A stretch of DNA of 64,000 nucleotides from NCBI GenBank assembly GCA_043228905.1, contig JBHGNT010000006.1, positions 16,368,001-16,432,000 of the forward strand, written 5' to 3'. Made by a program: the position numbers and the translations under genes. Origin of the DNA: Azolla caroliniana (Eukaryota; Plantae; Polypodiophyta). The notes beneath the pieces were generated by a model. The model was not told where the DNA came from. It did not search any database and saw only the letters and a program-made list of their open reading frames with translations. This document shows, one piece after another, positions 1 through 49,099 of this stretch (position 1 is its first letter; every line of letters starts with the position of its first letter).

Positions 1-529
1 TTGAAGATGGGCCGGAGTACGAGGTTGTCGCCATCCTTGATTCCAAGATTGTTCGCAACAAGCTCTACTATCTAGTCGATTGGCTAGGCTATAGCCCCAA
101 CGAACGTACTTGGGAACCGATCGAGAATGTGACCAATGCTCGTGCGCTTCTTGAAGACTTCCATCGTCAATACCCACACAAACCAGGTCCTCAATCCAAG
201 ACGACTCGTGACACTTGTCGTTTTAAAGGGGGGATAGTGTCATGATATGGCAAGACTCGAACCCATGACCTTAAGTTATATGGGTCGAGCTCTTGACCAT
301 TAGATCATCTATTGTAAGTAGGATATTATTTTCATTTACATTTTATTATAGGAAATTACTGTATATTCCAGATTTCTCTAGAACATTCTAGAAGCTTCAG
401 GATTACTCCTGAAAACACTATAAAAGAGGGCATTAGGCATTATATTGAACCAAATTGGTTCAACGCTAGTCTTAAGCCTTTTAGCCACCATTGTATATTC
501 TCTTCATATAATACATATCTTTCTTATCA

Positions 530-581
<52 letters not shown>

Positions 582-686
582 CGTCTCGCTCACTTCTTCC
601 TTCTCTCGAAGAAGTTCCACACCTCTCATAGTACTAATCCTTCGTTTAGTACTAATTCCTTCTCTGTCTCAGTACTGTTCCTGACA
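1..686 (+). mobile_element. 3' end of a Ty3/gypsy chromovirus (Tcn1-like): chromodomain, PPT and 3' LTR (238-686), nested in the RNase H region of a related element
   Basis: 1-237 translates as EDGPEYEVVAILDSKIVRNKLYYLVDWLGYSPNERTWEP (chromodomain). PPT AAAGGGGGGATAG precedes an LTR TGTCA(238)...TGACA(686) with a TATA box and (CT)n. The sequence after 686 resumes in RNase H (LSQISEDGELHPVAFHSRKF). Confidence 0.9.
381..398. promoter_or_regulatory. Heat-shock element array in LTR U3
   Basis: GAAcaTTCtaGAAgcTTC is four perfect alternating nGAAn units about 20 bp upstream of TATAAAA. Confidence 0.6.
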
Positions 687-3119
687 CTATCCCAGATTAG
701 TGAAGATGGCGAACTGCACCCTGTGGCTTTTCACTCACGGAAATTTGGAGCTGCAGAAATCAACTATGAGATTCACGACAAAGAGCTTCTTGCCATTGTG
801 GATTCTTTTCAACAATGGCGTCATTTTTTGGAGGGCTCTTCTCAACAGATTATTGTCTTCAATGATCACAAAAATCTAACATACTTCCAAAGTGCTCGAG
901 TCTTGAATCGTCGACAAGCTCGTTGGGCGCAGTTCTTAACTCGTTTTGATTTTGTAATTCTATATCGCCCTGGGATGCAACAAGGAAAAGCAGATGCTTT
1001 ATCTCGACGTTCGTATATGGAACTTCAACCAGGAGAAGCCGCATTTGAAAGTCAAAAGCAAATCCTCTTAGGTCCTGATCGTCTACGAGTAGTGGCAATA
1101 CATACTATCAACACACCAGGAGATTCGAGGCTTCTTGATTCCATTCGAGAGCAGATTGCAACAGATGGATTCGCCCAAGAGGTTTTGAGTCATATTATCC
1201 CCGATCGTGCTTCCAGCTCTCAATCTAAAAATCCTCGTCTAGACTACACCCAGTTCAATTGGCATGATGGTTTGCTTTTTCGACAAACTCTCTTGTATGT
1301 GCCTGACGGTCCTTCTCGACTCAAAGTCGTGCAACAATGTCATGACATGCCAATGGCTGGACATTTCGGCATCCACAAGACTTTTGAGTTGATTTCTCGC
1401 CGATATTTGTGGCCACGGCTTCGCCATTTTGTTACGGATTATGTTCGTAGTTGTGATACATGTTGCCGATCAAAAAAGCCTCGACATCATCCATATGGTC
1501 TATTATAGCCAATGCCTATTCCAGAGAGCCCATGGAAATCTATTTCCTTGGACTTTATTATGGATCTTCCACCTTCCAAGGGATTTGATTCTATTCTCAC
1601 GGTAGTCTATCGTTTTACGAAGATGGCGCATTTCCTTCCATGCACGAAGACCATTACTAGTCAAGAGACAGCCGATTTACTCATGCGGGAAGTGTTTCGC
1701 CATCATGGTCTTCCGGATGATATTATCAATGATCGGGGTCCCCAATTCATCTCGAAATTTTGGCGGCACATGTTCAAACTCTTACATACTTCTTGTAAAC
1801 TCTCTTCCGGCTACCATCCAAAGACTAATGGGCAGAGTGAGCGCACCAACCAAACAGTCGAACAATATCTACGTTGTTTTGTCAACTATCAACAAGATGA
1901 TTGGGTGGATTTATTACATTTGGCGGAATTTGCTTACAACAACTCCGAACATTCTTCTACTGGCTATTCCCCATTTTTTGCTAACATTGGGTACCATCCT
2001 CGTTGGACGATGCTTGAACATCCCGAACTCCCGAAAAACCCGGCTGTTGAAGATCGGCTCACTTGACTCCAAGAAATTCAAGATATACTTTTGCATCATT
2101 TATGTGATGCCCAAAACACTCAAAAGAAGATTGTTGATCGTCATCGGCGTGATTCATCAACTACGTTTCAAGTAGGAGATCGTGTATGGGTCTTACAAGG
2201 TAGCATTAAAACCACTCGACCTTGTTACAAATTGGATTATCAACGTTTCGGCCCATATGTGATCTCTGGTAAGATCAATGATGTGACATTTCGTCTTGAT
2301 CTCCCTCCTCATATGCGTCTTCACCCGGTCTTCCATGTTTCACTTTTGGAGCCCTACACAACAAGCTCTATTCCGGGTCGTCTTACACCTCCCCCACCTC
2401 CAATCAAAGTTTCCAATGGCTCTGAATATGAGGTCGCTGCTATTCTCGACTCCAAGATCATCCGCAACAAACTATATTATTTGGTTGATTGGTTAGGTTA
2501 TACACCTAATGATCGAACATGGGAGCCTGCCGAGCATCTTGCTAATGCCTCTGACATGGTTGTTGCATTTCACGACAAATATCCCCATAAACCAAGTCCG
2601 AACTCTTGTCTTCCGACTCGTGGAACTCGTCATCGAAAGGGGGGATAATGTCATGAAGACAACATTTTGGTTATCAAGAATCGAACCCACGACTTCTTGG
2701 TCTATGTGTTGAACCCTTAACCATTGTAATAATATATATGTTGTGTGATTATAATAATTATGTTTCTAGTTATTACAATATATTAGAATATTCTAGAACA
2801 TTCTAGATTATTCTAGAACATTCTAGAACATCCTTTAATATTTCATGATTATATTTCTTATCATAAAATCTAAAATATTCTAGAACATTCTAGATTACTC
2901 CATAAGGACCTATTAATAATTGTCTATACATTCGTTTCAACTCATTTGGTTCAACACCAGTCTTTAGCCCTTAGCCTACTCATTGTAATCTTGTTTCATC
3001 ATAATATAATCTCATTTCTATTTCAAGTCTTATCTCTCTTACTCTCTCTCTCTCACGCACACACACACACACCCTCTCTCTTTTGCTCTCACTCTATCTT
3101 CTACCCACGAGTCTCGACA
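687..3119 (+). mobile_element. Ty3/gypsy chromovirus pol (RNase H-integrase-chromodomain, with in-frame stops), PPT and 3' LTR (2649-3119)
   Basis: ORFs 723-1508, 1512-2066 and 2091-2648 give NYEIHDKELLAIV (RH), the HHCC zinc finger, SLDF...DRGPQF...GQSERTN (integrase), GPY and chromodomain YEVAAILDSK. PPT AAAGGGGGGATAA; LTR TGTCATGA...CTCGACA. Confidence 0.92.
2786..2895. promoter_or_regulatory. Extended heat-shock element arrays in second LTR
   Basis: GAAtaTTCtaGAAcaTTCtaGAttaTTCtaGAAcaTTCtaGAA (2786-2828) and a second TTCtaGAAcaTTCtaGA cluster near 2878-2895. Confidence 0.6.
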
Positions 3120-3122
3120 GTT

Positions 3123-3600
3123 TGTAGAGAAATGCACGGAATATCGCTCGGCCACAACAAAGTAGTAAATCACTTCTATAAGAATCAAACAGAGAAATGA
3201 GAAATGGAGAGCACACAAGAAAATGACACAGGATGTTTACGTGGAAAACCCTAATAGGGAAAAACCACAGGAGCCCACAGACTCCGAACTATCACTATGA
3301 AGAGAAGGGGTACAATCAGAGACTCGGAGGCAATGACCTCGACCTCTGTTTCTTCACACAGTGGCGGTTACAACAGAGTATCACTTTGTATCTCTCTCTC
3401 TCTCTAACTCCCTCTCACTTTGTCGCTCTCTCTATACAACGGTTACAACAACAATAACAACACATATAAAGTGATTGCCCTAAGTCATATTTATACTTGT
3501 ATGAACTTAGGGCTATTTACAAATATAGCCTCAATGGGCTTACTCAGAAACATATTTACAGATATGTCTTCTTCATCCAATTCTCACCGAGTCTTCTACA
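3123..3600. mobile_element. Probable solo/remnant LTR
   Basis: TGTAGA(3123)...TCTACA(3600) terminal inverted hexamers around non-coding, CT-rich sequence. No matching TSD found. Confidence 0.4.
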
Positions 3601-6600
3601 TCCGATTCTCAAGATCCCATCCGAAGGGACCGAAATCCCAACACATAGGAGGAATGACAATAATCGACCACCGCATTGTCGATTCCATGATAATAGGAAG
3701 TTGAAAGGATCTCAACAGTTTTAGCATGATTCAAGAGCCAGAGATGACTCCGAATTCCAAGAGGCTCGTCAACCTCAGTATGAAAATGGTGAATCTAGTG
3801 GCTCATCTATATCGACTTGCTATATCTGCAGGAAAGATGGTCACTATCCAAATCAATGCCCGACGAAGGATAAATGCAAAGCCCCGATGGTGAATATGGT
3901 AGTGCCCGAAGTACAATAGGTAACCACTCATAATAAGGCTAACCAATCAGAGTGGGAAGTATCGGAGGCAATAAAAAAAGTGGCCAAGGATTGGGTCAAA
4001 GAGGCCAACAACAACATGTGGGCCGAATGCTGCAAGAAAGCGTTCTATCAACCAATAACTCGGAAAGTCGACTAGTTGAACAGTCGGCACCGACTATAGG
4101 ACCTGAAGACCAAGAAGCATGGAAAGTCTTGGTAGATTGTCAAGTGTCATTACCCCTAACTAAATTAATGAAATTAGTGTCAATATTTACTGAAAAGGTC
4201 GCCACAATTATTGCACAGAATGGGACAAAAAAAGTGTCGGTGAATTATACTAATCCAATCACAGGACCGGTGGTAATGGACGAGTAGAGTGCAACAATTA
4301 GGGTAATAATTCATGGCCAGGAAGTCTCAAGGAGCATTGTCGATGGTGGTTCTGGTGTCAATGTGATTAATAAGCTTACATGTGAACAACTCGGTATTAC
4401 GAAATGAGACGCCTGTCCTTTTTGGTTAAGAATGGCCAACACGAGTACTGTCTGGCCACTCAGACTGATTCGACAATTGGACATTGTCATCGATGGACAC
4501 ACATTTCAGATCTCGGCAATGGTTCTTCATTTAGATGCATCAGGTATATATCGTTTATTATTGGGTAGACCTTGGTTCAAAACTGCTAATATCAAGCAAA
4601 ATTGGCAGAAAACTATTCTGACATTCCGAAAAAGCAAGGGCAAGATTCGGTTGTCGACGCAAGAGAAGGTCACAATGTCTCGACAATGTTTATCAGTTCA
4701 TATGGAGGCAATTAACATGATGGAGGGATTGGATGATGTAGAAGAAGAACAGTACTTCGAAGATAATCCCAAGATCATTCCATTATTTGAAATTGACATT
4801 TTTCAAACACTCACGGCTTATTTCAGCAAAGAAGAAAAAGAAGAGGAGATGCTTGTCGATGATAAAACCCTAAATGAATTACGACTACAATAGGAAGCTA
4901 TGTAATGGGAGATGCGGGTATCTCAGCGAGCGCAGGCATCGGCATTAGAGGAATTAAATTTAGCCAAAAAGCCAATAAGACACTATAATGGGTTGGCCGA
5001 GTCAGCCAATAAGACACTATAATTTTGATGAAGATAGTCAATGAGAATAGAACTTATTGGAATCTGAAGTTGCACAATGCTTTATGGGCTTATCACACCA
5101 TGTACAAGACAATGATCAAGTAGACTCCGTTCCGAATGGTGTTCGAATTAGAGGCTATAATGTCAATCGAATTTCAAATTCCAACATTGCGCGTATAGGT
5201 AATCGAACTACTTGACGAGGAACAGCCGGAACGAGTTCAGGAGCAATTATTATTACTGGAGGAGAGTCGGCTCCAAGCCATGTGTCACTTAGAGCAGAAG
5301 CAAAGACAAACTAAGTCATTCGTCGATTGACACCGAAAAAATGTTCAAAGTCAGTAAGCTGGTATTAGTGTTCCAAACGAAGATGGGTTCGATGCCTGGA
5401 AAACTCAAATTCTGATGGGCCGGGCCTTTTTGGATTGTCAGCAGTAAGGATGCAACATATCAAGTCAGCACATTAGCTAGGGAGATCTTGCTGAAATGGG
5501 TCAACAGATTCCGACTTAAGCCATATCGAGGACTGACCCCGACTAACCCATTTGACCAAAGCGCGGACACAGGCAATCTGCCGCCTACCTAGTGAAAGTC
5601 GGTCAAGAGGACATGATTGTAAATAATATTATTAAAAATAATAAATAAATAAACAAAATCTTGGCAAAAATAACCGTAACAGAAAAACCATTCTTGTCAT
5701 CATTAATTCTTGGCACTGTCATTTTCAGACTATAAATGGACAGGCAGGTTAATGATTTATTATTCATTAAGAGTAGTGGCCATTAAAGCGACATTAATAG
5801 AAGATACTATGTTTATAAGGTTCTACTCGAGAAATGAACCATTTTTCCTCAAAAACTCCCACGGTTACATTCTGTGTCATAGAAAAACACAAACGTTTAC
5901 AAGCGAACAGGTCACGAACAAACCTCTCACAAAGTACTCAAGCTTCTCCACATGCAGTAAGCAGCAACAACAACCCACATAGGCACTCAGGCCTTCTCCG
6001 ACAAGCGCCGAGAGTAGCGGCCTTAGTTTCGAAGAAGATGCAAAAGACATAATGTTGATTCTAGTGTCAGATCGCTTGCGACAATGGCTGAAATCAAAAG
6101 GTTTGAAGGGATACCTCCGAGTGGTAGATGTCGAGCCACATCCTCAGGAGGAGAACCTCATTAAGGAGATCAACATCAACAAAATAACAAATAAACAGAT
6201 ACGTCGATTTCTCAATCTGAAAAACGAAGGTTATGATCAGATGGATGCTCTCGGAGCAAACGTCTTGCAGTCATATTTTGGGGAATATTCAACATCAGCC
6301 AAGGCATACAAGACTCAAGGCGGCAACGATGAAATTTTCCAAGAAGTCGCAAAATTTTGATTGGAGGTTGCATGTGTAAGTCCGCGGTTTTACTGCATGC
6401 CCAAACAACAGTCATGGTTCATCATAGCAATGTAAGAAGGGGAGAAGATTGACTGGGGGTATATTACAGGGCTAGCATTCCACGAGCAATTACATGGGGT
6501 ACAAAACAGGAAGCCCATGAAACTGATTTTCAGTCGATGGCTTACAGTCATATTCCGACACCTACTTTGGATGGTCACCTTAAGACCCCAAGGAAGGAGC

Positions 6601-23000: not shown

Positions 23001-23164
23001 CATATATGTATGTATGTGTATATACATACATATATGTACATTTATATGTATGTACAACAAGTTTATTTGTAGTGGTAACTTGTTAATTTACTAGCTTTAC
23101 ATTTTGGATTTGAGATCCAGTTTTCTCATTTCTCCATTATTATTACTCCATGGATATCCTCCTA

Positions 23165-23412
23165 ATTTACTAGATGCCATTGTGAAATTTAGGTGTTGAA
23201 TCCATGACCTACTTATTATTAGTCTTCATCCCACACATCCATCTGGGTACCTCTCTTTTGTTCTTATAAAGAGCTTACCCAATAGTGGTAAGCTGTTTAC
23301 ACTAGGTAGCACTACATCTTGGGTTCGAAACCCAATTTTCTCACCTCTCTATTATTACACCATAATGACCACCTAGTCTCCATTGGGCAACCTTACCGAC
23401 TAACCTACATTC
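23165..23412. mobile_element. Cluster of tRNA-derived SINE fragments
   Basis: 23165-23210 and 23362-23412 are reverse complements of parts of the 25172 SINE. 23281-23335 has plus-strand A/B-box-like TAGTGGTAAG...GGGTTCGAAACCC. Confidence 0.55.
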
Positions 23413-23959
23413 ATTTGGGCTCTCTCTCTCTCTTTGAGATGAAAACACACCATTTATATAAATGTGTGAAAAACACAACTTACAATGGGTGTTCACAATG
23501 GAGTATGATCACCCACTAAATACACTACATGGGTAGTGGAACATGTTGAATTGCCAATAAGCTAGACAAACACTCCGTCGAGGAAAGAATTATCATTTGC
23601 TCCAATAAAGAAATTTGTCACATTAGTACTCCCTTCAACTTTTGCCTATATGCTTTCACTCCATGCCTCTAATACAGGCTCGCAAAGAAATGTGAAATAT
23701 GATACATCGTAAAAGACGAGCGCGGAAGGCATCCCAATATTGGGACCTCTACCATATGCTCATGAGTAACAATTGTGCCACTACCCAAAGGAGATTACAA
23801 TAACAAGACCAAAACAACCATTAAAGTTACTAACACCTAGTACACATATATAGAGAAGATACTATCTATCCTATAGGGATGGGGACCCATGGAAGAGTGC
23901 AACATAGCAAAGGAAGATGGACGGTAGGTCAACATTCTTGTAACAACGATTTATAACTA

Positions 23960-25990
23960 ATGAAAGGATATTTTCATGGGGGGAAAAACACATATATAGA
24001 GAAACTTTACCAAGCCTCGAAGCACATCATATATGCTCGAGAGTGCCTAGTAACCCCTTTCCTCATTCTACTCTTTACTTTCGTGAAGGGTTTTCCACCA
24101 CAATGGACCATGAACACAATGGCCCATGTACATAATGGAGGGGATCCCATGGACCCCAATACATATAAGACTATTATGATTGATCATAGACTTGCTAAAT
24201 TGTATGGTGCATGATGGAAGCAAAGCTCATCGACTATATGGAGACATTGTATTTGTCTTTGAGCACCCCAACAGGCCGACTCTAGATGAGTCATCTCTAC
24301 TATTGACCATATATATTCACACTTAGATGCTTAATTGACTAGATCGAGCCTCATAAAAGGAAATTATATTGTTGTTTTGTGGATTTCCGCAAAGCCTTTG
24401 ACAAAATCCCTAAAGAGCGGTTGTTTGACAATCTAAAGCTTGGAGATACCAGATGATATGATTTGGGTCATCTATGCTTTATATGAACAAGTCTCCAAGT
24501 GTGTATGATGTCCAAGCAACCTATCAAATTACTTCACTAGCATCATTAGTGTAAAACAAGACTGTCCCCTATTACCGACTCTTTTTTGGATTTTATTGAT
24601 CGTAAGGGAGGCAATGGAGTAGACCTAAGGGCTATGCAAGTCAATATATTGCTTTATGCATATGATATAGTTTTACTCTGAGTTTGAACACAAACTATAA
24701 GGGCATCTTTAATGCCTCAGATTACTTTTGCACACAAAGAGGACTGATAGTGAATCTAGGGTAAACTAAAGTCCTTATCTTCCACACATGTGCTTAAGGT
24801 AGGAATAAATGTTAGCTAATGCTCTCTAATAGATAAGTTGAAGTAGTCAATCATTAGTATACCTTATAGTCATTTTTAGTGCTCGCTTAGGTAAATTTTC
24901 AATGACACATGTAGCAAAAGATTGACTAACAAGAGGACATGTGTCCCTCTCACTCTTGGAGAGTGAATGCCACCATGCACATTTCCAAGAGCCACGAACA
25001 AAGAGGTGGTTCTTCGACCCATTAGTAACCCCCTCCCTCATGTATGCACTGGTGGTTTGGGCTCCAGGGCTACCACCTTTCATGTGGTTCCAATTAGAGA
25101 GATTGTTGATCATGTTGCTATCACAACAAATCCGAAGCAAATCAACAATGTCATAAAGGATAGTTCACTTTGCCCAAATGGATGTAGCTTAGTTGGTAAG
25201 GTTGCCCAATGGAGACCAGGAGGTCATGACTTTAACCCCCACATTTCATAGTGGCATCTAGTAAATTAAGAGATATATATGAATTAATAGAGACAAGCTA
25301 ATTGGGATAAAAAAGAGAGAGAAAAGCATAGTTCACTTTACCTTTTATGCTAGTTGAAATACTTTTTCAACTGGTAGTTTTTACTAATAGGATACATAGC
25401 CAATCACATGTGCATACCTCATTAGGCTTTCAAGGCATCTCAATCCCTCTATGAGTCTGGAGATACTAGTTCTTGGTATAGTATTGTGGTAAGATGACTT
25501 TTCACAAACGGCCTAGACATTAATAACCTACCATCTCCTAGGTACGAGTACGAGACAGGAAAAACTTCAATCTCATATGGGAACCATAATAAAGTGATAC
25601 TCAACATATATGGATCAATCCACTAGAGCTACTCCCATCTAAAATATTGAATTATAAGGAGCATTTCATGCATTTCTGTGAGTTAGGATTTATTGTACGA
25701 CCAAAATATCTAGATATGTTATTGCCATATGCACTAAGGGTTGTCATTGGACAACTTAGAGTATCATCCAACAAACTTTAGATTGAGAATGGTCGCACTA
25801 ATGGATATGTAGATTATGTCATTTAGAGATAGAGGATGAGTGTCATGAACATCTGGCAATGACTACCACTTTACATGCAAATGTCCAACTTACATCAAGA
25901 TAAGGGAAAAATATAAAGAAAAACTTGGACCCTCTCCCACACTCTCCCAATTATGAAATACCTCGGACATAAAGACACTAGGTAGGTATA
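23960..25990 (+). mobile_element. Highly degenerate non-LTR retrotransposon (LINE) RT
   Basis: Fragments NTYKTIMI, STIDHIFTL, FVDFRKAFDKIP, SVKQDCPL and ILLYAYDIV match LINE RT motifs. Many stops and frameshifts. Confidence 0.7.
25172..25322 (+). mobile_element. Full-length ~150-bp tRNA-derived SINE inserted in the LINE
   Basis: A-box TAGCTTAGTTGG, decayed B-box, A/GA-rich tail, 17-bp TSD AAAG(G/C)ATAGTTCACTTT (25155-25171 and 25323-25339). Confidence 0.8.
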
Positions 25991-30900: not shown

Positions 30901-33900
30901 CCCTGGAAGAAGTAAATGTGGGTACGGAATCGGAGCCCCGCTTCCTCTCCATCGCAAAGGAATTAAGGCCGGACCATAGAAACACGATGATCGCACTACT
31001 CATGAAATATAAAGATGTGTTCGCTTGGGCTCACGAGGACATGAAGGGGTTAGATCCCAAGTTCTATAAGCATAAGATCAATTTAGCAACCGACGCGAAA
31101 CCCTACCGCATGAACCCAAACTACGCGACCCGCGTGAAAGAAGAAATTGACAAGCTCCTGAAGGCGGGGTTCATACGGCCAGTTAAACAAGCGACATGGT
31201 TAAGCCCGATAGTGGTCGTTCCAAAGAAAAACGGAAAAATACGGGTATGCGTAGATTACTGAAAATTAAACGCCGTAACCATTACAGACGCATTTTCCGT
31301 ACCCTTCACCGATAGCGTACTGGACGCCGTCATAGGACATGAGATATACAGTTTTTTAGATGGCTTCAATGGCTATAACCAGGTACGCATGCATCCCGAG
31401 GACCAAGAAAAGATAGCATTTGTCATGGACTCGGGAGTCTATGTGGCAGTCGTCATGATGTTCGGGCTAAAGACGGCGCCGGCAACATTTCAATGAACAA
31501 TTACGGAGATCTTTGGGGAATACATTCTGGCGTTCATGCAAGTTTTTTTAGACGACTTTGTGGTATATGGGAGAACAATAGACCATTTTACGCACTTACA
31601 ACTGTGCCTGGAAAGTTGCCGCACCGCACGCTTAAGCCTGAATCCCGCGAAATGTGCTTTTGGCGTGACCAGCGGGACTCTCCTGGGCCATATAGTCAGC
31701 AAGGAGGGAATAACGGTTGATTCGAACAAGATATCCGTGATTACGCAAGCCAAAACTCTGACAAACGCCAAATCGCTCAGCAGGTTTTTAGGACAAATAC
31801 GTTGGCATAGTCGGATGATACGGTATTTGGCGGACTTCGCCACGCCGTTACATGTTGCCGTACATTGGACTCCTTTCCAATGAACTGCAACGGAGGATAA
31901 GGCCTATGAGGCACTTAAGATAATGCTCACATAGGCCCCCGTCGTACAACCACCAGTTTGGGCGAAGCCATTTCACGTGTTCGTCGACACCTCAGACATA
32001 GCAATAGGAAGTGCACTAATGCAGCTCACTGAACCAAACTGGTACCGGCCAATGTACTACGCTAGTCACAAATTATCAACAACAGAGCGTAACTATTCCA
32101 CAACGGAGCAGGAGGCGCTAGGGATGATCTATAGCATCAATAATTTCCGGCATTATTTACTAGGAAGGAAATTCACGTTCCACGTGGATCATTCGGCGCT
32201 GCTGTATTTGGTGGAGAAACAAGCCCTAATGGGGAAATTGGCACGATGGATGCTGCTGCTCCAAGAATTCGATTTCGTAATCCAGCACCGACCAAGGACG
32301 CAATACGCAATGGCAGATTTTTTGAGCAGACTTGAGAATGGCGAAACAGTACAGAAAGATGACGACGATTTTCCGGACGCTGACATCTTGCGAGTAGCAG
32401 CACTAGCAAAAAGAACGGAATCGACCTTTCCGAACCAGTGGCTTATGGAAATGACGTACTTTTTGACTACGGGACTTCCTCCACCACAATTACGCATGGA
32501 CGAGAAGAAATGACTAGCCGTCTGAAGCCGTCACTTCTGCCTCGTCGAAGGCGTTTTATATCACAAAGGAAGTGACGGCATTTGGCGACGTGAGGTACGT
32601 CAGGATGAGAAGGAAGCAGTTTTACGGGAGGCGCACTGCGGCACGGCAGGCGGCCATTACGCGGGTGACGTTACAACCCGGAAAGTATGCCAGGCAGGCT
32701 TCTGGTGGCCAACAATGCAGAAGGACACATCCGAGTATTGTAGAAAGTGTGATTTGTGTCAACGGATGGGCTAGCCCGCGGAGGGCGCAAGGATGCCACA
32801 CCAGCTCGTATTACCGCTCGACCCCTTCAAAAAGTGGGGATTGGATTTTGTGGGCCCCTTCACACCGGCGGCGGCCCGTACAGGCAATAAATACATATTG
32901 GTAGCCACGGATTATTGCACCAAGTGGGTAGAAGCAAAGGCACTACGTGAAAATACGACGACCGTCACAACCAGATTCCTTTACGAGCACATCTGGTGTC
33001 GGTTCGGTTGTCCGATTGAGCTCATCAGTGACCAGGGGAGTCACTTTCTCAATACGGTGGTTCGGGAACTAACACATCATTACGCAGTAGTCCATAAGAA
33101 GAGTACGCCATATTATCCACAGGAGAATGGGTTAGCAGAATCCACCAACAAGACGTTGCAGACCATTTTGAAGAAAATCGTCAATGAAAATAGAACGGAC
33201 TGGGATACCAAATTACAGAGTGCGTTATGGGCGTACAGAACCAGCTACAAAACAAGCATACAGTCAACACCGTTGTCGCGAAAATACGACGAGGATACGT
33301 GAACGTTGAGGCAAGACCCCGGGGCCTTTGTCTAGAGGATATTAAATTCGTGTATTTATATACTAAGAATTAACCGAAATGAGAAAGATTAACAAATTTC
33401 ATTAATAAAAGGGAAAGAAAGATTACAATCAATCCCAAGATTGGGATTACAAAAGTTTTATCTTATGGAGATGATTAGAATAATAGATTAGAGGAAATAA
33501 GAGATTATGATTCTTGAGTGATATGGCTTTGACAAGGAATTTTGGATTTTGAGAGATTGCTTCCGTATAGAAATTATGGTTTACTTGAGAGATAGCTTCC
33601 GTAGGGAAGATTAGGGTTATTGGCTTCGATAAGATAAGAGAGCTCCCCAACAAAAGAAAAAAAATTTAGATAATATGGAGAGTGAGTCCTAGTGTAGGAA
33701 AAAAAATAGAATAAATATGGAGTTCTCCCTTGATCATAGCCTTTCCACTTTTTCTTGCATGGCCTCTACTTTTAGTTGCCTAGCTTTTTCTTTTGGTTGC
33801 ATGTGACTGTCCACATGACCTTTACTTTTTCCATGCACTCCTTCTTTAGTTGCTTGCGTCCACATGGCCTTTACTTTAGTTCTCTTCACTTTACTTTAGT

Positions 33901-34589
33901 TTGTTGCATGATCCAATCTTTCGTCCGTCCGCGTCCAACCTCGTCCGGTAGCCGGTTCCATTTTGCTTGCCGGTCAGTTCCGGTTCCGGTTTTGCTTGCC
34001 GGTTCCGGTTCCGGTTTTTCTTGCCGGTTCCGATTCCGGTTTGCTTGTCCGTTCTGAATCCGATTTTGCTTGCCGACCGGTTCCGATTTTGCTTGCCGGC
34101 CGGTTCTAGTTTTGCTTACCGGCCAGTTTTCGGATTGCATACCGGCCGGTTTTCGGATTTGCTTACCGAACCCATTTTCCGAATTTGCTTACCGGCCGGT
34201 TTCCGATTTTAGGGAATTTGGCCACCATCATCCATCAAGACAAAGTGGCCAAAGTGCTCTTAGCACAAATGAAAAATGAGGGAGCTCAAGGTGTTTATAT
34301 AGCCAGGGCCTTAACTTTCCTATCTATGTGGGATAGTTCTAATTGCCCTATCTAATCAAACTTTATTTTCTTATAACTTGATATGTATTTCTCCATTTTG
34401 TTTATAGTAAAATACATTTTGAAGCTCTTGAGTATATCCATCTTTCTATAGTAAGTTACTAATCTAATCTATAATAATTATTTTATTATTATTTTACATA
34501 GTGTGTGAAGATTCACACGACATTCACCCCCACCAAACCTGCACATCCACCGGTATGTGCCAATTTTGGTGAGGATTCATTTTTGTTTA

Positions 34590-37500
34590 CTATACTTTTT
34601 CATCGATGCTTAAGACTGAATCGTCAAAAGCTTCGAATCCAATTTCTATTCTATCTCTTCTCTTGAAGATCTTGATTCTTTTACCGGCAATTGGCAAGGC
34701 AAGTGGTGTACCATCCAGTTCTACTAAATGATATGTTGCATTATCTTTCACTTTCTTCACCACATATGGCCCAAACCATCGTTGTGAGAATTTTCGAGCC
34801 GTACTATGTTGGTTATCTAGGCTACTGTCATAGACTAGCACCCAATCTCCTTCAACGATTTTCCTCGGCCGAAGTCGATGTCGTTTATTGAAGTCTTTCT
34901 TGTTCTTTAGCCTTGCATTCTTTAGCCACGCTTTAGCCACCTCTACATCTTCCAAATTCCACTCTAATTGTCGAATCCTCAATGCTAGAAGATCTTCTCT
35001 ACTTATCTCATCTTGCCATGGCAATGCAAACCATGAAATAATACTTTGTTCTACCGGCATTATTGGCTTTTGTCCGAATATGAGCTCTGCCGGCATGTAT
35101 CCCGTCACCGTGCTATGAGTAGTCCTGTCAGCCCATAATGCAAATGGCAATAGACGTGGCCATTCTCCTATTTTCCCATGGCAAGCTTTCACTAGAGCCT
35201 TCACAATCGGTCCATGTCCACGTTCCACCTTCCCATTTGCTTCCGGATTATACGCCATGGTAAGAGATAATTTGATTCCCATCCTCGAGAAGAATTCTCT
35301 AGCTTCATTGGCGTCCAACTCGCCTCTATCAGCCACTATCTTGCCGACGCATCCATATCTGCAAATAACATCTTCAAGAAGGAATCGGCATACTGATGAT
35401 GTCTCCTTAGTTCTTAATGCTCGCCCTTCAACTTGATTGGTAAGATCCTCTCTCGCGAGCACAAGATACTTCATCTGCCATCGTCCCATTGGCATCATCA
35501 CTATGTCCACCATCCACTTGTAATGCATAGCCAACGGGTAAGTCGGATGAAGTCCATCTCGATGGCAAATATTCGAAAACATTTGACATTCCTTACATGT
35601 TTCCACATAAGCTGCTACATCTTTGTAGATGCCCGGCCACCAATATTTCTCCTTAAGCTTCGCAAACATAGCCCATATTCCTCGATGGCCTGCAAAAACA
35701 CTATCATGAAATTCAGACATTAGTTTTTGTTGGTCTTCTAGCTTGCAGACAACTCTCATCGGAGTCCCATTCTTCTTTTTTGCATGCTTCCAAAGAGCTC
35801 CATTCTTAAGGAAATACTTGTATGCTTTCTTCCGAATTCGATGGATGTCTTCCGTCGACCATGATTCATCTTTTTGGAGAGAACTCAAGTATTTCCCGAC
35901 CTCCACGAATTCGTCTTCGTAGTCGTCTTCTATGAAAGTAATCAACACCCGAGCATAGGAACTTGCAAAGAAATCCAGGCCAACATCATCTTCATCAGAA
36001 TGTCGATCTTCTTCTCCGTCGTATCTCGCTCGTGATAGCATGTCTGCAACGACATTACGCTTCCCAGCTACATGACGGATCTCGGGGTTGAGTGATTTGA
36101 TATATGCAATCCAACACAACATGGCAATATCCGGTGTATTACAACCAGATATCATACCCAAAATTGGTAGGCAATCTGTCTCAATTATGACTTCTGCTCC
36201 AATAAGGTAATCACGATCAGATTTGATTGCCGAGACGATCCCCCATAGCTCCCTCTTCACTTGGGCATACCTTCTTTGCCTGTCACTTAACACTTTCGCG
36301 CCAAACCGAATTGCATATCGGTTGCAATCTTCATCTTCTTGGTTGATAACCCATCCAATTCCGATTGGACTAGTATCCACAGTCACGAAAATGGGCTTGC
36401 CGTATGAATAGTCCGCTTTCCGTAATGCAGGTGCCTCCATCAATAATTTCTTTAGCCTTCGGATGGCGATTGTATGATCGCTCGTCCATTCAAACATCCG
36501 CTTCTTCTTTAGTAGACCATATAATGGCTCAGCAATGTGGGCGTAGTGTGGAATCCAAATATGATAAAACGCGCATGCTCCAAGGAACCTTCGAACCTCC
36601 GTTTGGGTTACATATTCTTCTTTCATGCCTTGAATTGCATTCACCTTGGATGGCGAAGGCTTCCGACCGTATGCTCCACACAAGTGACCTACCACCAGGA
36701 TCTCCGGTTGCCTGAATGCGGATTTTTCTCCCGAAAATGTCAAATTCGCATCTTCGAGCCTTTGGAGCACCTTCTCGCAATTTTTCATATGATCCATGAC
36801 AAACTTTCTACATCCATCCTTATCTTTTGATTCATCCTTCTCTTCATCTGAACATCCTTTTATCGGAATATCATCTAAGAATGGCATCGTGATATCCGGG
36901 ATGCAATCCTTCAAGACCTTGTTCATGGCATTCACCATATGAGCCACCGAGTTCGTTGTGCCTTGAGGTAAGGTACACATCCGCACCAACCCGATTGGAG
37001 TTTTCATGGTTGTAATGTCACGACTGTCGACCGCCAACTGGAATTGATCATAGCCAGAGTAAAGATCACCGATGGAGTAGATGGACCGGCCCGCAAATGC
37101 CTCGGCAAATTCATCCACACTTGGACCGATTCCAGCATTCCGAATTGTCACCTTGTTGACGGGTTGAAGATCTTGAATGAATCGCAACGATCCATTCTTC
37201 TTTGGCACCATGAACCACCTATTAGAATAAGGAGTGTTCCACGGTTCTAGAATTCCCATCCTCACCTTCTCCTTTAAGAGCTCGATCAGCTTCGGTAGGT
37301 GTGCTCTTGGAACCAGTATCGGTTTCAAATTCCAAGGCACATGCGGCATCGTGAAGATCACCATCGGTTCTACCGTCCTTGGATTAGCACACCCTATTTC
37401 TTGTGGGAAAAACGCGAAAGCCTTCCCATGTCTTTCAAGCATTCCACGAAACATCCGCTCTTCTTCAGGGAGGAGGAAATCCTCCCTTCCAACTCGTAGT

Positions 37501-38045
37501 TTTCCCTTCGTCTCTTCAGTGAAGATGTGACCAATTGTATTTGGGTTCCTTAAGCTTGGATCTTTTGCAACTTCCTTCATCTTTTGCCAGCTATCTTCCG
37601 GTAGCGGAACTACAACTGGCTTGATCTTCCTATCCACGATTTTATATTTTGTGTTGACTTCGACTTCCTCTATCAAGATGCCTCGATGATATTCATCGAT
37701 GATAGTATACATGTTGACGGAGTTAACCGAAATCACATGTTGATGGTGAGGATAACTCAAATCCACGACTTCCTTGATTTCGCCGATGGTGTCGTTAAAT
37801 GAGGCTTCCTCCAGAATATATGACACGAATTCTTCTTCTTCGATTATGCTTTCTTCTTTCAGCACCTCCTCGAAGTCTTGTATCTGACACTTTTCCTTCT
37901 TGTTGAGTAGTCTAAGTTTGCATGCGCCACCAAGTGTGACGCATGTTGCTTCTCCTTGCAATCCACGCACTTTGCTTCCTTGTGGGGACTTATGATTGCT
38001 CGGACTATTTGTGCCCCATGCTTCAATAGTCCGCTTTAAAAATCC
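34590..38045 (-). CDS. Retrotransposon Pol (RT-RNase H-integrase), in the -1 frame relative to Gag-PR
   Basis: 1126-aa ORF, open upstream to the gag stop. RT LPQG...PFLDDIPIKG, RH VDTSP...YAQVKRELWG, IN HHCC, MVD...ADRGE...NGKVERGH and GPY. Confidence 0.92.
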   Translation of the reverse strand, partial: GFLKRTIEAWGTNSPSNHKSPQGSKVRGLQGEATCVTLGGACKLRLLNKKEKCQIQDFEEVLKEESIIEEEEFVSYILEEASFNDTIGEIKEVVDLSYPHHQHVISVNSVNMYTIIDEYHRGILIEEVEVNTKYKIVDRKIKPVVVPLPEDSWQKMKEVAKDPSLRNPNTIGHIFTEETKGKLRVGREDFLLPEEERMFRGMLERHGKAFAFFPQEIGCANPRTVEPMVIFTMPHVPWNLKPILVPRAHLPKLIELLKEKVRMGILEPWNTPYSNRWFMVPKKNGSLRFIQDLQPVNKVTIRNAGIGPSVDEFAEAFAGRSIYSIGDLYSGYDQFQLAVDSRDITTMKTPIGLVRMCTLPQGTTNSVAHMVNAMNKVLKDCIPDITMPFLDDIPIKGCSDEEKDESKDKDGCRKFVMDHMKNCEKVLQRLEDANLTFSGEKSAFRQPEILVVGHLCGAYGRKPSPSKVNAIQGMKEEYVTQTEVRRFLGACAFYHIWIPHYAHIAEPLYGLLKKKRMFEWTSDHTIAIRRLKKLLMEAPALRKADYSYGKPIFVTVDTSPIGIGWVINQEDEDCNRYAIRFGAKVLSDRQRRYAQVKRELWGIVSAIKSDRDYLIGAEVIIETDCLPILGMISGCNTPDIAMLCWIAYIKSLNPEIRHVAGKRNVVADMLSRARYDGEEDRHSDEDDVGLDFFASSYARVLITFIEDDYEDEFVEVGKYLSSLQKDESWSTEDIHRIRKKAYKYFLKNGALWKHAKKKNGTPMRVVCKLEDQQKLMSEFHDSVFAGHRGIWAMFAKLKEKYWWPGIYKDVAAYVETCKECQMFSNICHRDGLHPTYPLAMHYKWMVDIVMMPMGRWQMKYLVLAREDLTNQVEGRALRTKETSSVCRFLLEDVICRYGCVGKIVADRGELDANEAREFFSRMGIKLSLTMAYNPEANGKVERGHGPIVKALVKACHGKIGEWPRLLPFALWADRTTHSTVTGYMPAELIFGQKPIMPVEQSIISWFALPWQDEISREDLLALRIRQLEWNLEDVEVAKAWLKNARLKNKKDFNKRHRLRPRKIVEGDWVLVYDSSLDNQHSTARKFSQRWFGPYVVKKVKDNATYHLVELDGTPLALPIAGKRIKIFKRRDRIEIGFEAFDDSVLSIDEKV
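37983..38045 (-). promoter_or_regulatory. Programmed -1 ribosomal frameshift signal (slippery heptamer + pseudoknot)
   Basis: G GAT TTT immediately before the gag TAA, 5-nt spacer, 9-bp stem CGGACTATT/AATAGTCCG, and loop TGGGG complementary to downstream CCCCA. Confidence 0.8.
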
Positions 38046-40252
38046 GAGGATTCGCCTCCAAGGCTATCTCGGTTCCTTTCATGATTAGCTCGCACCGTCA
38101 GGAATTGAACGGATCTTTTACTATCAAGACTCTTGACGCGCGCGAAGGCCGCTCCATTATCGAACACCTTGGTCTCCATCCGGGACGATGTTATATATGG
38201 TTGTCCTAGGATGACGGGATGTGAAGCCGAGTCTTGCACGAAGAAGTGTTGATCAATCTCTACATCCCCGATCGTGACTTTAACGTTGGGGCAAGCTCCG
38301 TACAAGTCCTCCGTAGCCTTCGTCGCTGCTCGAATCTTCCATCCGTGGTTTGTATTAATCGGCCATCTTCCTTTCTTGTAGAACTCGGTCGACATGAGGT
38401 TGATCTCAGAGCCATGGTCAATCAAAGCGACCACGGTCTCTTTCTTCTCCCCGATCTTCACCGGTGTCTCCGTTGTCACTCTTGCCCAATGAGGTCGCGA
38501 GTAATGGCTATCCGCCACCACTTCTTCTTCTTCCTCCTCTTCCAATTTTGCCATGGTTATGGCACTTGTTTTCACCTCCTCTTCATCAGATTGTTGCCGC
38601 TTCCTCTTAATAAGGTCCACGATAGTATCATGGAACTCATTCTTCGCGATCCCAAGTAGCTCTCTCAAGGTAAGGTCGACATGACTATCTAAAACCTTCT
38701 CCTCAAGGACCTTCCGCAAGTTAGTTGTTTGTTCTATGTCCGACCTTAGCTTGTAAGTCGGTGCCGCTCGTTCTTTTCCTTTCTTCGTTGATTCTTCAAC
38801 TTCCATCCGAGCAGGTTGGTTCGATCCACCGGGCTTCATGTTTGTTTCACCAATCTCTTTTCTTGGGATAGGTTGCGGTGGCCCTTCTTTCCCTCCGTTC
38901 CTCGTGTTAGGTCGCTTTGATGTGCCATCTTCTTCACCAGTTTTCTTCCTCTTCTCTTCGACAAGGGCTTCATAGGTGTCACACACAACCTCCGCAAAGC
39001 TTGTGTTTTCGTCGAGTGGATCTGACCATCCGGTTGCTCGTCGCACATTTCGGTCAGCAAGTTTTAGATCCTCCGAATTGATTTTGCCTTTTTCTTCGCA
39101 CTCGAAGACCGTTGGCCAAAACCCAGCTCCTGGCTTGATCATTTTAAGATTCTCTTTTCCAACTCCTATCCCAGCCGAAGCGGCATAGTGAATAGCCTCC
39201 ACATGCCTTGCATCTTCTTCTTCTACAATCTTTTTCAGCCCACCTCTTCCGAAGTTCACTCGTAGTGGCTTCCGGGTCTCGCTTGAGTGAATCATGTTGC
39301 CATCCAAATAGACGACATTCTTGCGGATCGCATCTTGCAAGTCAGCACATTCCCTTCGTGAGTGTTCAAAGCTATCGCACCACACACATCTATACGCTTC
39401 TTTTCCCTTGGGCCCGCGTCGACCTAAGTTGGCTAGCGATACCGCTTCAAACTTCTTGGAGAGCTCTTCGATTATAGACTCCTCCATTGCTTTCTTGTCG
39501 AAATTGTTGATCGGCTTACTAGGCTCAATCGTCGTAGGTGCGTTCTTCCACAATTGTGGATTCTCGACCTCAGCTTCCTCTTGCCATTGTCGCCGCTTAT
39601 CAAAACGGCTGCAAGCCTTCTTCACCGCCGCCCAGTCCGCTACCAAACCATTTGGTTGTGTTTCGTCCTCCAAGAAACTACCCAATTCTCGCCGATCTTT
39701 CGCATCCATTGCCTTTAGGAATAGTAAAACTTTATCTCCGTCGAGAACTCGTTGCTCAACACTCGGAAGTCGGTTGTACTTCTGGTCGAATTCGGCATAA
39801 ATTCCCGATGCACACAGATTCTTCCCTTTCTTCTCGATCCAATTCATTAACATATGCCGAGTCATCCGCAATGCGTCTTCAAGCATGTATTCAGTGAGAA
39901 GAGCCCTTTCGAACTCCGCCCAAGTTGCATGCTCGTTTTGGATCTCCATCACGCGCTCACGGATCCCGGGTTCTACCACACGCTTAAAGCTTGAAATTTG
40001 TTTTGGATCATGGACATCTCTTTGTTGCATCTCATTCCGGTAGGTAGCAAGGAGATTTGTGATGTTCTTCCCACCGAATCTTCCAACTGTCTCCACAGTT
40101 CGGTCAACAGCTTTGTCGACTAAAGCCTCCCGATCTCTCTCTTTCAGCATGAATCCGACGACGGACACCATGCCTTTCGTCAATTCTTCTCCTTGAGTTC
40201 CACATGTCGAAGCCATCTTCGTACTAGATATCCTCCTACTGCCTTGTTTCAC
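38036..40252 (-). CDS. Retrotransposon Gag-protease polyprotein (first ATG at 40216)
   Basis: 738-aa ORF with CVWCDSFEHSRREC knuckle-like motif and aspartic protease ALIDHGSEINL...VILGQPY. Confidence 0.88.
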   Translation of the reverse strand: MKQGSRRISSTKMASTCGTQGEELTKGMVSVVGFMLKERDREALVDKAVDRTVETVGRFGGKNITNLLATYRNEMQQRDVHDPKQISSFKRVVEPGIRERVMEIQNEHATWAEFERALLTEYMLEDALRMTRHMLMNWIEKKGKNLCASGIYAEFDQKYNRLPSVEQRVLDGDKVLLFLKAMDAKDRRELGSFLEDETQPNGLVADWAAVKKACSRFDKRRQWQEEAEVENPQLWKNAPTTIEPSKPINNFDKKAMEESIIEELSKKFEAVSLANLGRRGPKGKEAYRCVWCDSFEHSRRECADLQDAIRKNVVYLDGNMIHSSETRKPLRVNFGRGGLKKIVEEEDARHVEAIHYAASAGIGVGKENLKMIKPGAGFWPTVFECEEKGKINSEDLKLADRNVRRATGWSDPLDENTSFAEVVCDTYEALVEEKRKKTGEEDGTSKRPNTRNGGKEGPPQPIPRKEIGETNMKPGGSNQPARMEVEESTKKGKERAAPTYKLRSDIEQTTNLRKVLEEKVLDSHVDLTLRELLGIAKNEFHDTIVDLIKRKRQQSDEEEVKTSAITMAKLEEEEEEEVVADSHYSRPHWARVTTETPVKIGEKKETVVALIDHGSEINLMSTEFYKKGRWPINTNHGWKIRAATKATEDLYGACPNVKVTIGDVEIDQHFFVQDSASHPVILGQPYITSSRMETKVFDNGAAFARVKSLDSKRSVQFLTVRANHERNRDSLGGESSDF

Positions 40253-42829
40253 GTTAGGTTCACCAAAGATGTCGCGAAAATACGACGAGGATACGTGAAC
40301 GTTGAGGCAAGACCCCGGGGCCTTTGTCTAGAGGATATTAAATTCGTGTATTTATATACTAAGAATTAACCGAAATGAGAAAGATTAACAAATTTCATTA
40401 ATAAAAGGGAAAGAAAGATTACAATCAATCCCAAGATTGGGATTACAAAAGTTTTATCTTATGGAGATGATTAGAATAATAGATTAGAGGAAATAAGAGA
40501 TTATGATTCTTGAGTGATATGGCTTTGACAAGGAATTTTGGATTTTGAGAGATTGCTTCCGTATAGAAATTATGGTTTACTTGAGAGATAGCTTCCGTAG
40601 GGAAGATTAGGGTTATTGGCTTCGATAAGATAAGAGAGCTCCCCAACAAAAGAAAAAAAAATTAGATAATATGGAGAGTGAGTCCTAGTGTAGGAAAAAA
40701 AATAGAATAAATATGGAGTTCTCCCTTGATCATAGCCTTTCCACTTTTTCTTGCATGGCCTCTACTTTTAGTTGCCTAGCTTTTTCTTTTGGTTGCATGT
40801 GACTGTCCACATGACCTTTACTTTTTCCATGCACTCCTTCTTTAGTTGCTTGCGTCCACATGGCCTTTACTTTAGTTCTCTTCACTTTACTTTAGTTTGT
40901 TGCATGATCCAATCTTTCGTCCGTCCGCGTCCAACCTCGTCCGGTAGCCGGTTCCATTTTGCTTGCCGGTTGGTTCCGGTTCCGGTTTTTCTTGCCGGCC
41001 GGTTCCAATTTTGCCTACCAGCCGGTTTCCGGTTTGCTTGCCGGCCAGTTCCAGTTTTGCTTACCGGCCAGTTTCCAGTTTTGCTTGCCGGCCAGTTCCA
41101 GTTTTGCTTACCGGCCGGTTTTCGATTTGCATACCCGTTCCGGTTCTGATTTTGCTTGCCGGCCGGTTCCAGTTTTGCTTACCGGCCAGTTTTCGGATTG
41201 CATACCGGCCGGTTTTCGGATTTGCTTACCGAACCCATTTTCCGAATTTGCTTACCGGTCGGTTTCCGATTTTAGGGAATTTAGCCACCATCATCCATTA
41301 AGACAAAGTGGCCAAAGTGCTTGCCGGTTTGCTTGCCGGCCGGTTCCGGTTTTGCATACCAGCCGGTTTCCAGATTTGCTTACCGGACCCATTTTCCGGA
41401 TTTGCTTACCGGCCGGTTTCCGGTTTTAGGGAATTTGGCCACCATCATCCATCAAGACAAAGTGGCCAAAGTGCTCTTAGCACAAACAAAAAATGAGGGA
41501 GCTCAAGGTGTTTATATAGCCAGGGCCTTAACTTTCCTATCTATGTGGGATAGTTCTAATTTCCCTATCTAATCAAACTTTATTTTCTTATAACTTGATA
41601 TGTATTTCTCCATTTTGTTTATAGTAAAATACATTTTGAAGCTCTTGAGTATATCCATCTTTCTATAGTAAGTTACTAATCTAATCTATAATAATTATTT
41701 CATTATTTTTTTACATAGTGTGTGAAGATTCACACGACACCGTTTCGACTAGCGTTTAGGCTGGAGGCTATGATGCCGGTCGAATTTCAGGTACCCAGTT
41801 TGCGGATTCAGGTACGGAACCGACTATCAGAAGCCAAGTCGGAGGAGGTACGGCTCCATCAACTACTCGAACTCGGGGAAAAACGCATACACAGCATGGC
41901 TATGTTGGAGCAGGAACGACGACGACATAAAGCTATTGTGGATCGACATCAGAATGCAAGGGAAAAGGAGTTCGTCGTGGGTCGGGCGGTGTTGGTTTTC
42001 CAAACCCGCATGGGCCATATGCCAGGGAAGTTACGATTCCGTTGGACCGGCCCATACTGGATAATTGAAGCGGAACAAGGCACGTTCCAACTAGGTACGC
42101 TGGCTGGGGAAGTAGTACGGCAAAAGGTGAATGGGTTTCGGCTCAAACCTTACCTGGGTTGTGGAACAACAAATAGGCATCTATGCGTAATGCGTAGGGG
42201 AATGCTCCCTGTAACCTATCAGCGTATGAGGGAGACGACTACAACCGACTCCTTAGCAATGGTTACACTTACGTTCTTACACGCTAAGGCATTCCAGACA
42301 CATAACAGATTAGCCGTAGCTATGCACAGACTTTCAGAGAAGATAGAATTCTATTATGATATGTTTCTTTACATTCCCAAAATTACACACTCCCTCTATC
42401 AGAGGTTTTCTGCCCTTTATATATGCAGGGTCTATCTAGCCGTTCACGCTTCCTGCATGAACCGTTACATGCATTATGATCTTATATTATTTCTTATTCC
42501 TACGCTCTTGTCCGTCGATTACTATTCCGGTGGACAACACCTAGCACGCCTGTGGGATAGTGCCATGGCACGTCGGACCCATCCCGTTAATCCTCTTCCA
42601 AAATGGCCTGGATGTTTGGCTCTGCTGCGGTGTCCACGTCCGGAGGCAACGTAGGGTCCGTAGGTGCATCGTGGTGTGGCTCCCCTATTTGGTCGGACTG
42701 GTTTCTCCCGGTGTCGCAATTGTCGTGTGTGGGCGGTTCGGGTACGGTGGGCTCTTCTTGAGCTAGTGGGTTGGGTATATTCCTTTGAATAGGTTCCCAC
42801 TCTGATATCCGATCATCATCTACCTCTCA

Positions 42830-48907: not shown

Positions 48908-49099
48908 CCATCAATCATCTCACTGTCATCGAGTATCCCCAATAGCTTAAACCTACAGAAACAAACATGAATGCACACTCTCCTCTCCTTATGAAAATCA
49001 TTATTAGTCATCCCTATCTAAGGTAAAGCATCATTATTAGTCATCCCTATCTAAGGTAAAGCATATGCTTTACTATCCGCACCAATCATATCGGAGATT

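Follow-up and report, generated by a model that had tools for sequence, protein, structure and literature searches.

An antisense, tRNA-derived A/B-box module in the LTRs of Azolla caroliniana chromoviruses: a candidate docking site for Pol III factors

Why would full-length, protein-coding LTR retrotransposons carry, at the outer edge of both LTRs, a pair of tRNA-like Pol III boxes that faces out of the element? The known Pol III promoters of LTRs drive tiny non-autonomous elements, and a conserved outward-facing one in coding elements needs a different job. The question arises from a 64,000-nt stretch of contig JBHGNT010000006.1 of Azolla caroliniana (this whole stretch is called the window here; the genome searched is 523 Mb), in which a sequence-only reading had placed A- and B-box motifs on the minus strand of two LTRs, LTR1 and LTR2. 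The motifs lie where they had been placed: the minus strand of LTR1 has the first base of the A-box motif at 307 and the B-box motif at 264–254, and in LTR2 the B motif spans 2688–2678, while the quoted A motif starts at 2729 rather than 2730, tRNA position T8 being at 2731. The claimed tRNA-like geometry with a 43-nt offset also stands, since the distance from T8 to G51 is 43 nt in LTR1 and in LTR2, and when anchored on the B box both modules align in register with host tRNA genes, including the 5-nt variable loop. In both LTRs the module sits antisense at the outer edge of U3 (Table 1). An A+B matrix was built from six host tRNA genes, and each sequence was compared with 100 dinucleotide shuffles of itself. 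LTR1 scored 19.7 bits and LTR2 22.1 bits, values that 0 of 100 shuffles reached in either case; all six control windows, from five other repeats, were unremarkable (13–97 of 100 shuffles reached their scores).

Table 1. Positions of the features discussed, numbered from the first nucleotide of the window
Feature	Positions	Strand	Evidence and remarks
Chromodomain at pol end, nested family-A element	3–167	+	Pfam Chromo E=1.8e-15; best PDB matches HP1/SUV39H1/Clr4 chromodomains
Polypurine tract preceding LTR1	225–234	+	Sequence; same place in family copies
LTR1, family-A 3' LTR	238–686	+	TSD CTATC 687–691; 5' LTR 5.3 kb upstream, 93.6% identical
tRNA-derived module, LTR1	243–314	-	tRNA positions 1–72 in register; no cloverleaf
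B box, LTR1 (tRNA positions 52–62)	253–263	-	Matrix score, alignment
A box, LTR1	294–307	-	T8, R9, A14, G18, G19 kept; G10/C11 lost
GAA/TTC array, LTR1	381–398	+	Pattern scan; identity 0.73 across 6 clade-1 lineages
TATA-like box, Pol II promoter of LTR1	418–426	+	Alignment/sequence
Predicted self-primer at R start, LTR1	452–463	+	Complementary to PBS behind 5' LTR
Family-B host element: RNase H, integrase, chromodomain	687–2645	+	Pfam RT_RNaseH, Integrase_H2C2, rve, SH3_Tf2-1, Chromo; in-frame stops
LTR2, family-B 3' LTR	2649–3119	+	Its 5' LTR 89.2% identical, ~9 kb before window
tRNA-derived module, LTR2	2667–2738	-	A box 2731–2718, B box 2687–2677
Decayed, rearranged pieces of the two-headed SINE-like family	23159–23420	-	Second head 23284–23331 on +
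Shortened copy of the same free SINE-like family	25172–25327	+	12-bp TSD at 25160–25171 and 25328–25339

The two LTRs had been taken for a diverged pair, and this has to be revised: each is the 3' LTR of a separate Tcn1-type chromovirus, one from family A and one from family B, and the family-A element (5,757 bp, TSD CTATC) is nested in the RNase H region of the family-B element. Pfam matches follow the order RT, RNase H, integrase with a C-terminal chromodomain, which is HP1-like by its best PDB matches; pol frames are about 1,130–1,200 codons long in several families, and the gag–pol elements measure 5.3–5.8 kb. The Tcn1-type label is a putative one because it rests on RNase H and chromodomain sequences that, compared by eye, are close to those of Selaginella SM-Tcn1; the few named RT matches include fungi and amphibians, which fits the Tf1/Sushi group. 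From the outside in, the LTR consists of a TGTCA end, the antisense tRNA-like module, an AT-rich stretch, GAA/TTC arrays, a TATA box and an 11–12-nt segment complementary to the PBS. The GAA/TTC arrays, which we take to be heat-shock-element-like, lie upstream of the TATA box in families A, A2, A3, B, D, F, G and J2 (the second stretch in the window is at 2786–2890), and the same pattern scan finds none in families C, E, H and I; they may give their carriers stress-induced transcription.

In families A, A2, B, D and E the PBS shows 11–12 nt of complementarity to the R start of the same element (some copies are decayed), and because the R-start segment and the PBS change together across these five families, the carriers are predicted to self-prime in the manner of Tf1, as reported for Tcn1. 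A B-box-like motif at the R start was set aside, being this self-primer, which turns into unrelated sequence in D and E. In SM-Tcn1 itself (supplement S3 of PMC2864245) the 5' LTR is followed by 11 nt that, by eye, are complementary to a segment downstream of the TATA box, a self-primer which according to the paper was not found. Several LTR copies (L092, L048/L056, L099, L100) terminate in fold-back inversions, which lie at the self-primer or the GAA/TTC palindromes or close to them, and are possibly aberrant reverse-transcription products.

The scan for tRNA genes that had been proposed as a check came out negative, and the module is neither a tRNA gene nor a tRNA pseudogene: ARAGORN found no tRNA gene in the 64-kb window or in any of four LTR loci, Rfam gave no tRNA match in window positions 1–4000 at E ≤ 10, the best RF00005 score among 11 loci scanned (25.2 bits, in two family-D loci) is below the cut-off of 29, and there is no cloverleaf. 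On the 3' side of the B box the identity to tRNA breaks down, and likeness to tRNA 3' ends is absent. No donor isotype is singled out by identities of 32–65% between the anchored core and six host isotypes; the best-matching isotype differs by lineage, with matches of 8–17 nt (against 56 tRNA sequences that cover few nuclear isotypes), of which the 16–17-nt matches of families B and G2 are to tRNA-Lys. Nor is an RNA product constrained in any way we could detect, as fold z-scores of -2 or below occur in only 4 of 14 modules, with no structure common to them, and no oligo-T terminator is conserved close by (the first T4 run lies 19–927 nt downstream, depending on the lineage). The family-A module (window 243–311) does fold as a long rod in which the A-box side pairs with the B-box side (z = -5.6), but this is lineage-specific and a shared RNA fold was rejected; the family-D module has a 12-bp terminal stem. 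Genuine tRNA genes occur in tandem arrays at loci L061, L068, L069 and L078–L080, where they are Lys(UUU), with some GUU-anticodon variants on a Lys body, Ile(UAU) and Arg(UCU).

A first look at the genome gave 1,197 family-A and 615 family-B candidates, and a tight pattern counts 1,375 family-A LTRs. So that the module would not decide the choice, loci were sampled by chromodomain (30 loci plus 40 of the other 120 rows, mostly lower-scoring ones); these and LTR-selected loci gave 126 readable junctions, of which two without an LTR start were dropped, and the remaining 124 together with three metagenome loci formed 20 clusters. The representatives of 14 of these 20 clusters pass with 0 of 100 shuffles, all on the minus strand (antisense to pol). 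Their B box lies at a variable distance of 6–53 nt from the LTR end, whereas the A/B spacing is 34–36 in 12 of 14 rows (35–36 in tRNAs). The A boxes of clade-1 and J/E are degenerate (A score 5–13, against 13–20 for tRNAs). A and B boxes at suitable spacing with AT-rich DNA upstream, the layout of a type-2 promoter, are present, the A box being degenerate outside C/D. Such a fixed place and strand in both LTRs, in a module that has neither tail nor TSD of its own, speaks against sporadic insertions of SINEs with their own TSDs, the outcome that had been named as fatal to the idea.

The clusters that miss have separate causes. D(del) and A3 are single-copy deletions, and true family loss was rejected for the A3 copy without a B box, the module being retained in 14 of 14 other A3 members. 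The J representative has decayed, but its sister J2 passes, and G3 is one rearranged metagenome copy. Only H and H2 represent a family that has no module (all 15 loci examined score ≤10.5). This family has amplified without it (217 first-look candidates), and the loss there shows that the module is not essential. In all, the module is found in 13 of the 14 LTR lineages of this genome. Of three close metagenome relatives, which come from a single scan with an off-frame ORF query and so sample the breadth of relatives poorly, two have an intact module and one is rearranged; two scans of viral contigs yielded no relatives. No module is visible by eye in the LTR of Selaginella SM-Tcn1, so that, judged by this one outgroup, the capture is probably younger than the Tcn1 clade. 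A further Ty3/gypsy element in the window (about 33264–41740, minus strand) has DUF4100 in gag, no chromodomain match and a pol frame that stays open for 1,157 codons; two test windows of its LTR contained no A/B module.

Are the boxes kept better than neighbouring U3, as the sequence-only reading had asked? They are, across lineages, in anchored and unanchored alignments alike. In an unanchored alignment of 10 lineages, the B box reached an identity of 0.74, the variable loop with the T stem 0.71 and the A box 0.59, whereas the anticodon arm had 0.39, inner U3 0.41 and the sequence past the B box 0.26; the B box is thus about as conserved as the TATA box (0.77). An anchored alignment of eight deep lineages gave 0.81 for the A core and 0.71 for the B box against 0.33. 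Over the same depth the fourfold-degenerate sites of integrase are only 30–42% identical between deep lineage pairs (42–62 sites per pair), which is near saturation. (Rows H and I, which are frameshifted, were left out of the protein table, and the first version of the DNA tree had long branches that came from nested insertions.) The claim that the sequence between the boxes has diverged holds for the spacer, which is still homologous, but not for the variable-loop and T-stem bases ahead of the B box (44–51, outside the minimal B box), which are as conserved as the box itself.

Of the individual bases, G18, G53, T55, C56 and A58 are shared by all 13 rows, whereas positions 59 and 60 are variable, just as in tRNAs. 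The mean is 0.83 over the tRNA-invariant columns and 0.63 over the remaining ones (p = 0.0006, from rows that are not independent). The conserved bases are in other words the invariant promoter positions of tRNA genes, and the RNA product is unconstrained. Among 1,375 inserted family-A copies, 232 have a mutated B-box CpG and 204 a mutated spacer CpG (p = 0.16), so no protection from CpG decay is seen in them, and C56 has nevertheless never been lost in any lineage. That the site mutates readily after insertion and yet persists in replicating lineages we read as selection via the element's own propagation; most inserted copies show no sign of protection.

Elsewhere in the genome a closely similar sequence stands at the head of a free SINE-like repeat of about 205–215 nt, which has two tRNA-like heads, the second of them inverted, and an A-rich tail. 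There are 1,899 first-look candidates, mostly inside GA microsatellites. Both ends could be located in 14 of 30 loci (184–205 nt to the end motif), and clear non-repeat TSDs (12 and 15 bp) were found in 2 of the 30, TSDs being unreadable within GA repeats; the repeat thus has the tRNA head, A-rich tail and variable-length TSD of a SINE. Its head is 84–92% identical to the modules of C/D LTRs and 44–57% identical to those of other intact lineages, and the likeness to C/D extends to the LTR terminus. In a short tree the head nests among C/D modules (100/99), with a weakly supported place inside D (82/73; the bootstrap had not settled). The module spacers of B/G and D are 65–69% alike, which suggests one ancestral capture. 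We slightly favour the view that the SINE budded from a C/D module by way of an outward transcript; that a SINE head instead overwrote an older module, in the same place and on the same strand, is only somewhat less probable. The finding of near-identical sequence at the head of a SINE indicates, indirectly, that the module is able to work as a Pol III promoter.

We consider it likely (roughly 70%) that the module acts as a DNA site for Pol III factors, and a barrier that serves the LTR's own Pol II promoter is a possible role for it, although we hold this second step tentatively, at somewhat below even odds. TFIIIC reads A and B boxes and sets TFIIIB on AT-rich DNA up to 50 nt upstream, and TFIIIC/TFIIIB complexes block silencing in yeasts (PMC13578239). 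By analogy, TFIIIC would likely bind the antisense boxes at the outer edge of U3 and load TFIIIB on the inner side of the module, and the complex would then form a tDNA-type chromatin barrier, or an open patch, that shields the Pol II promoter in heterochromatin, where chromodomains are reported to steer integration (PMC7466625). The backward orientation would keep Pol III away from the HSE-like/TATA region, and an outward transcript, if any, would be a by-product. This reading is favoured by the combination of retained promoter bases, an unconstrained RNA, the position of the module between the flank and the Pol II promoter and the HP1-like chromodomain; the occurrence in 13 of 14 lineages on a fixed strand and in a fixed register, with no shared fold or terminator, also counts for it. 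The suggested Pol III promoter or insulator agrees, as a candidate function, with the pattern of conserved bases. Several facts count against a barrier: the equal decay of B-box and spacer CpGs makes most family-A copies look unprotected against methylation, family H has multiplied without the module, the A boxes of clade-1 and J/E are degenerate, and SM-Tcn1 shows no module by eye. TFIIIC tolerates flexible A/B spacing, and the box spacing here is tighter than TFIIIC needs; this and the conservation of bases 44–51 also count against the reading.

Other explanations account for parts of these data. The module could be a working outward promoter whose antisense transcript, or whose transcription itself, is selected, for example to regulate pol from the 3' LTR or to open the flank at the 5' LTR. 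Boxes at tRNA spacing below AT-rich DNA and a SINE head that resembles the C/D modules as far as the LTR terminus, as a read-out transcript would, fit this, but the first T4 run wanders with the lineage and few modules fold significantly, none in a shared way, and we think it rather unlikely. We judge as unlikely a neutral relic of one old SINE or tRNA capture, or a relic retained for other (Pol II) factors. The loss in family H and the control-like CpG decay of inserted copies agree with a relic, though decay after insertion is expected under any model, and a relic does not explain why box bases survive where fourfold sites and neighbouring U3 are near saturation, or why the survivors are the tRNA-invariant ones.

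Pairing of the module in genomic RNA with the D and T arms of a host tRNA, in the manner of the U3 half of the bipartite Ty3 PBS (in packaging, dimerisation or strand transfer), or sponging of tRNA fragments, has in its favour the orientation, which is the required one, the conservation of positions 44–58, the tRNA-Lys matches of families B and G2 and the Ty3 precedent (PMC5371799). It is nonetheless improbable: the PBS pairs and covaries with the element's own R start, no single isotype is matched across lineages, the tRNA 3' end has no counterpart, and no G-to-A change has been fixed at 18, 19 or 53, though wobble would permit it. As the elements are predicted to self-prime, a role as tRNA primer is unlikely, and so is the tRNA-fragment decoy that had been proposed. 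Least probable of all is a landing pad or integration aid, in which the boxes attract Ty3-like, Pol III-targeting integrases or tether the cDNA end. The B box does lie within 6–53 nt of the att end, but module-like matches, scattered in their distances, occur in 4 of 117 insertion flanks against 23 of 900 background tiles, the internal breaks of LTRs (at 73–353 nt) do not cluster, and genome-wide no LTR end lies within 30 nt of a family-A A box, in a search that detects TGTCA-type ends only.

tRNA-like sequence in LTRs is in itself not new. The closest known case is Helenus/TRIMp3 (Kojima 2024, PMC10886601), where tRNA-derived sequence is present in both LTRs, is conserved around boxes A and B, is neither a functional tRNA nor an RT primer, and is likely SINE2-related; the same paper remarks in passing on tRNA-like parts in "not a few" Repbase LTRs and argues that autonomous partners must use Pol II. 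Helenus elements are non-autonomous, 311–1263 bp long and tRNA-primed, with boxes proposed to drive their own RNA, whereas the carriers described here are 5.3–5.8-kb gag–pol elements with a TATA promoter, a self-complementary PBS and an outward module (the orientation in Helenus is implied rather than stated in the text of PMC10886601). Cassandra, the comparison originally drawn, is apt in that a Pol III-type internal promoter has been kept in plant LTRs over long times, but it is a weaker analogue than the tRNA-derived Helenus, since Cassandra is 5S-derived and non-autonomous, transcribes itself and has conserved terminators (as described in PMC10886601), none of which is true here. Size, coding capacity, orientation and priming thus rule out identity with a Helenus or Cassandra TRIM. 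The Tcn1 elements of non-seed plants share with our carriers a Group-I chromodomain, short LTRs with TG...CA ends, a 5-bp TSD and predicted self-priming (Novikova 2010, PMC2864245; Neumann 2019, PMC6317226), but the available text of these two papers makes no mention of a tRNA-like U3 module.

HIV-1 U3-R contains tRNA-Lys3-like sequence. Ty3 has tRNA-complementary sequence in the U3 of its genomic RNA (PMC5371799). Both of these act together with a tRNA primer, while the elements described here have no tRNA-type PBS and match no single isotype; one mosquito element has a tRNA dimer at its PBS (PMC3286476), which is a different arrangement. Yeast tDNA/TFIIIC barriers and B2/MIR SINE boundaries also consist of A/B-box DNA beside silent chromatin, where it is proposed to limit spreading (PMC13578239, PMC9540200, PMC8136502), but they serve the host genome and have been shown by experiment, whereas the present module, a candidate barrier, is borne by a selfish element in a plant. 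A literature search that stopped short of subscription papers, Repbase entries and the Helenus supplements yielded no report of a selected antisense module that is shared across a clade of autonomous elements.

If the module is a barrier, it suggests how an element that steers itself into heterochromatin could keep its promoter usable. Pol III-factor chromatin barriers in plants are undescribed according to a 2026 review (PMC13578239), and the module would be a short, mutable object with which to test for them; its thousands of LTR copies would also be potential TFIIIC sites in this genome, and the SINE link is a traceable case of LTR–SINE sequence exchange. It is conceivable, though doubtful in our estimation, that all of this belongs to one history in which heterochromatin-seeking autonomous chromoviruses carry their own tDNA-type insulator, whose outward transcript, retroposed once, founded a SINE family; the LTR would then have given rise to a SINE and would also be the first Pol III barrier in plants. 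Among the other repeats of the window, a tandem repeat of about 165 bp is present in at least eight copies at 47453–49008 and adjoins a LINE-like RT region at 49943–53383 on the minus strand.
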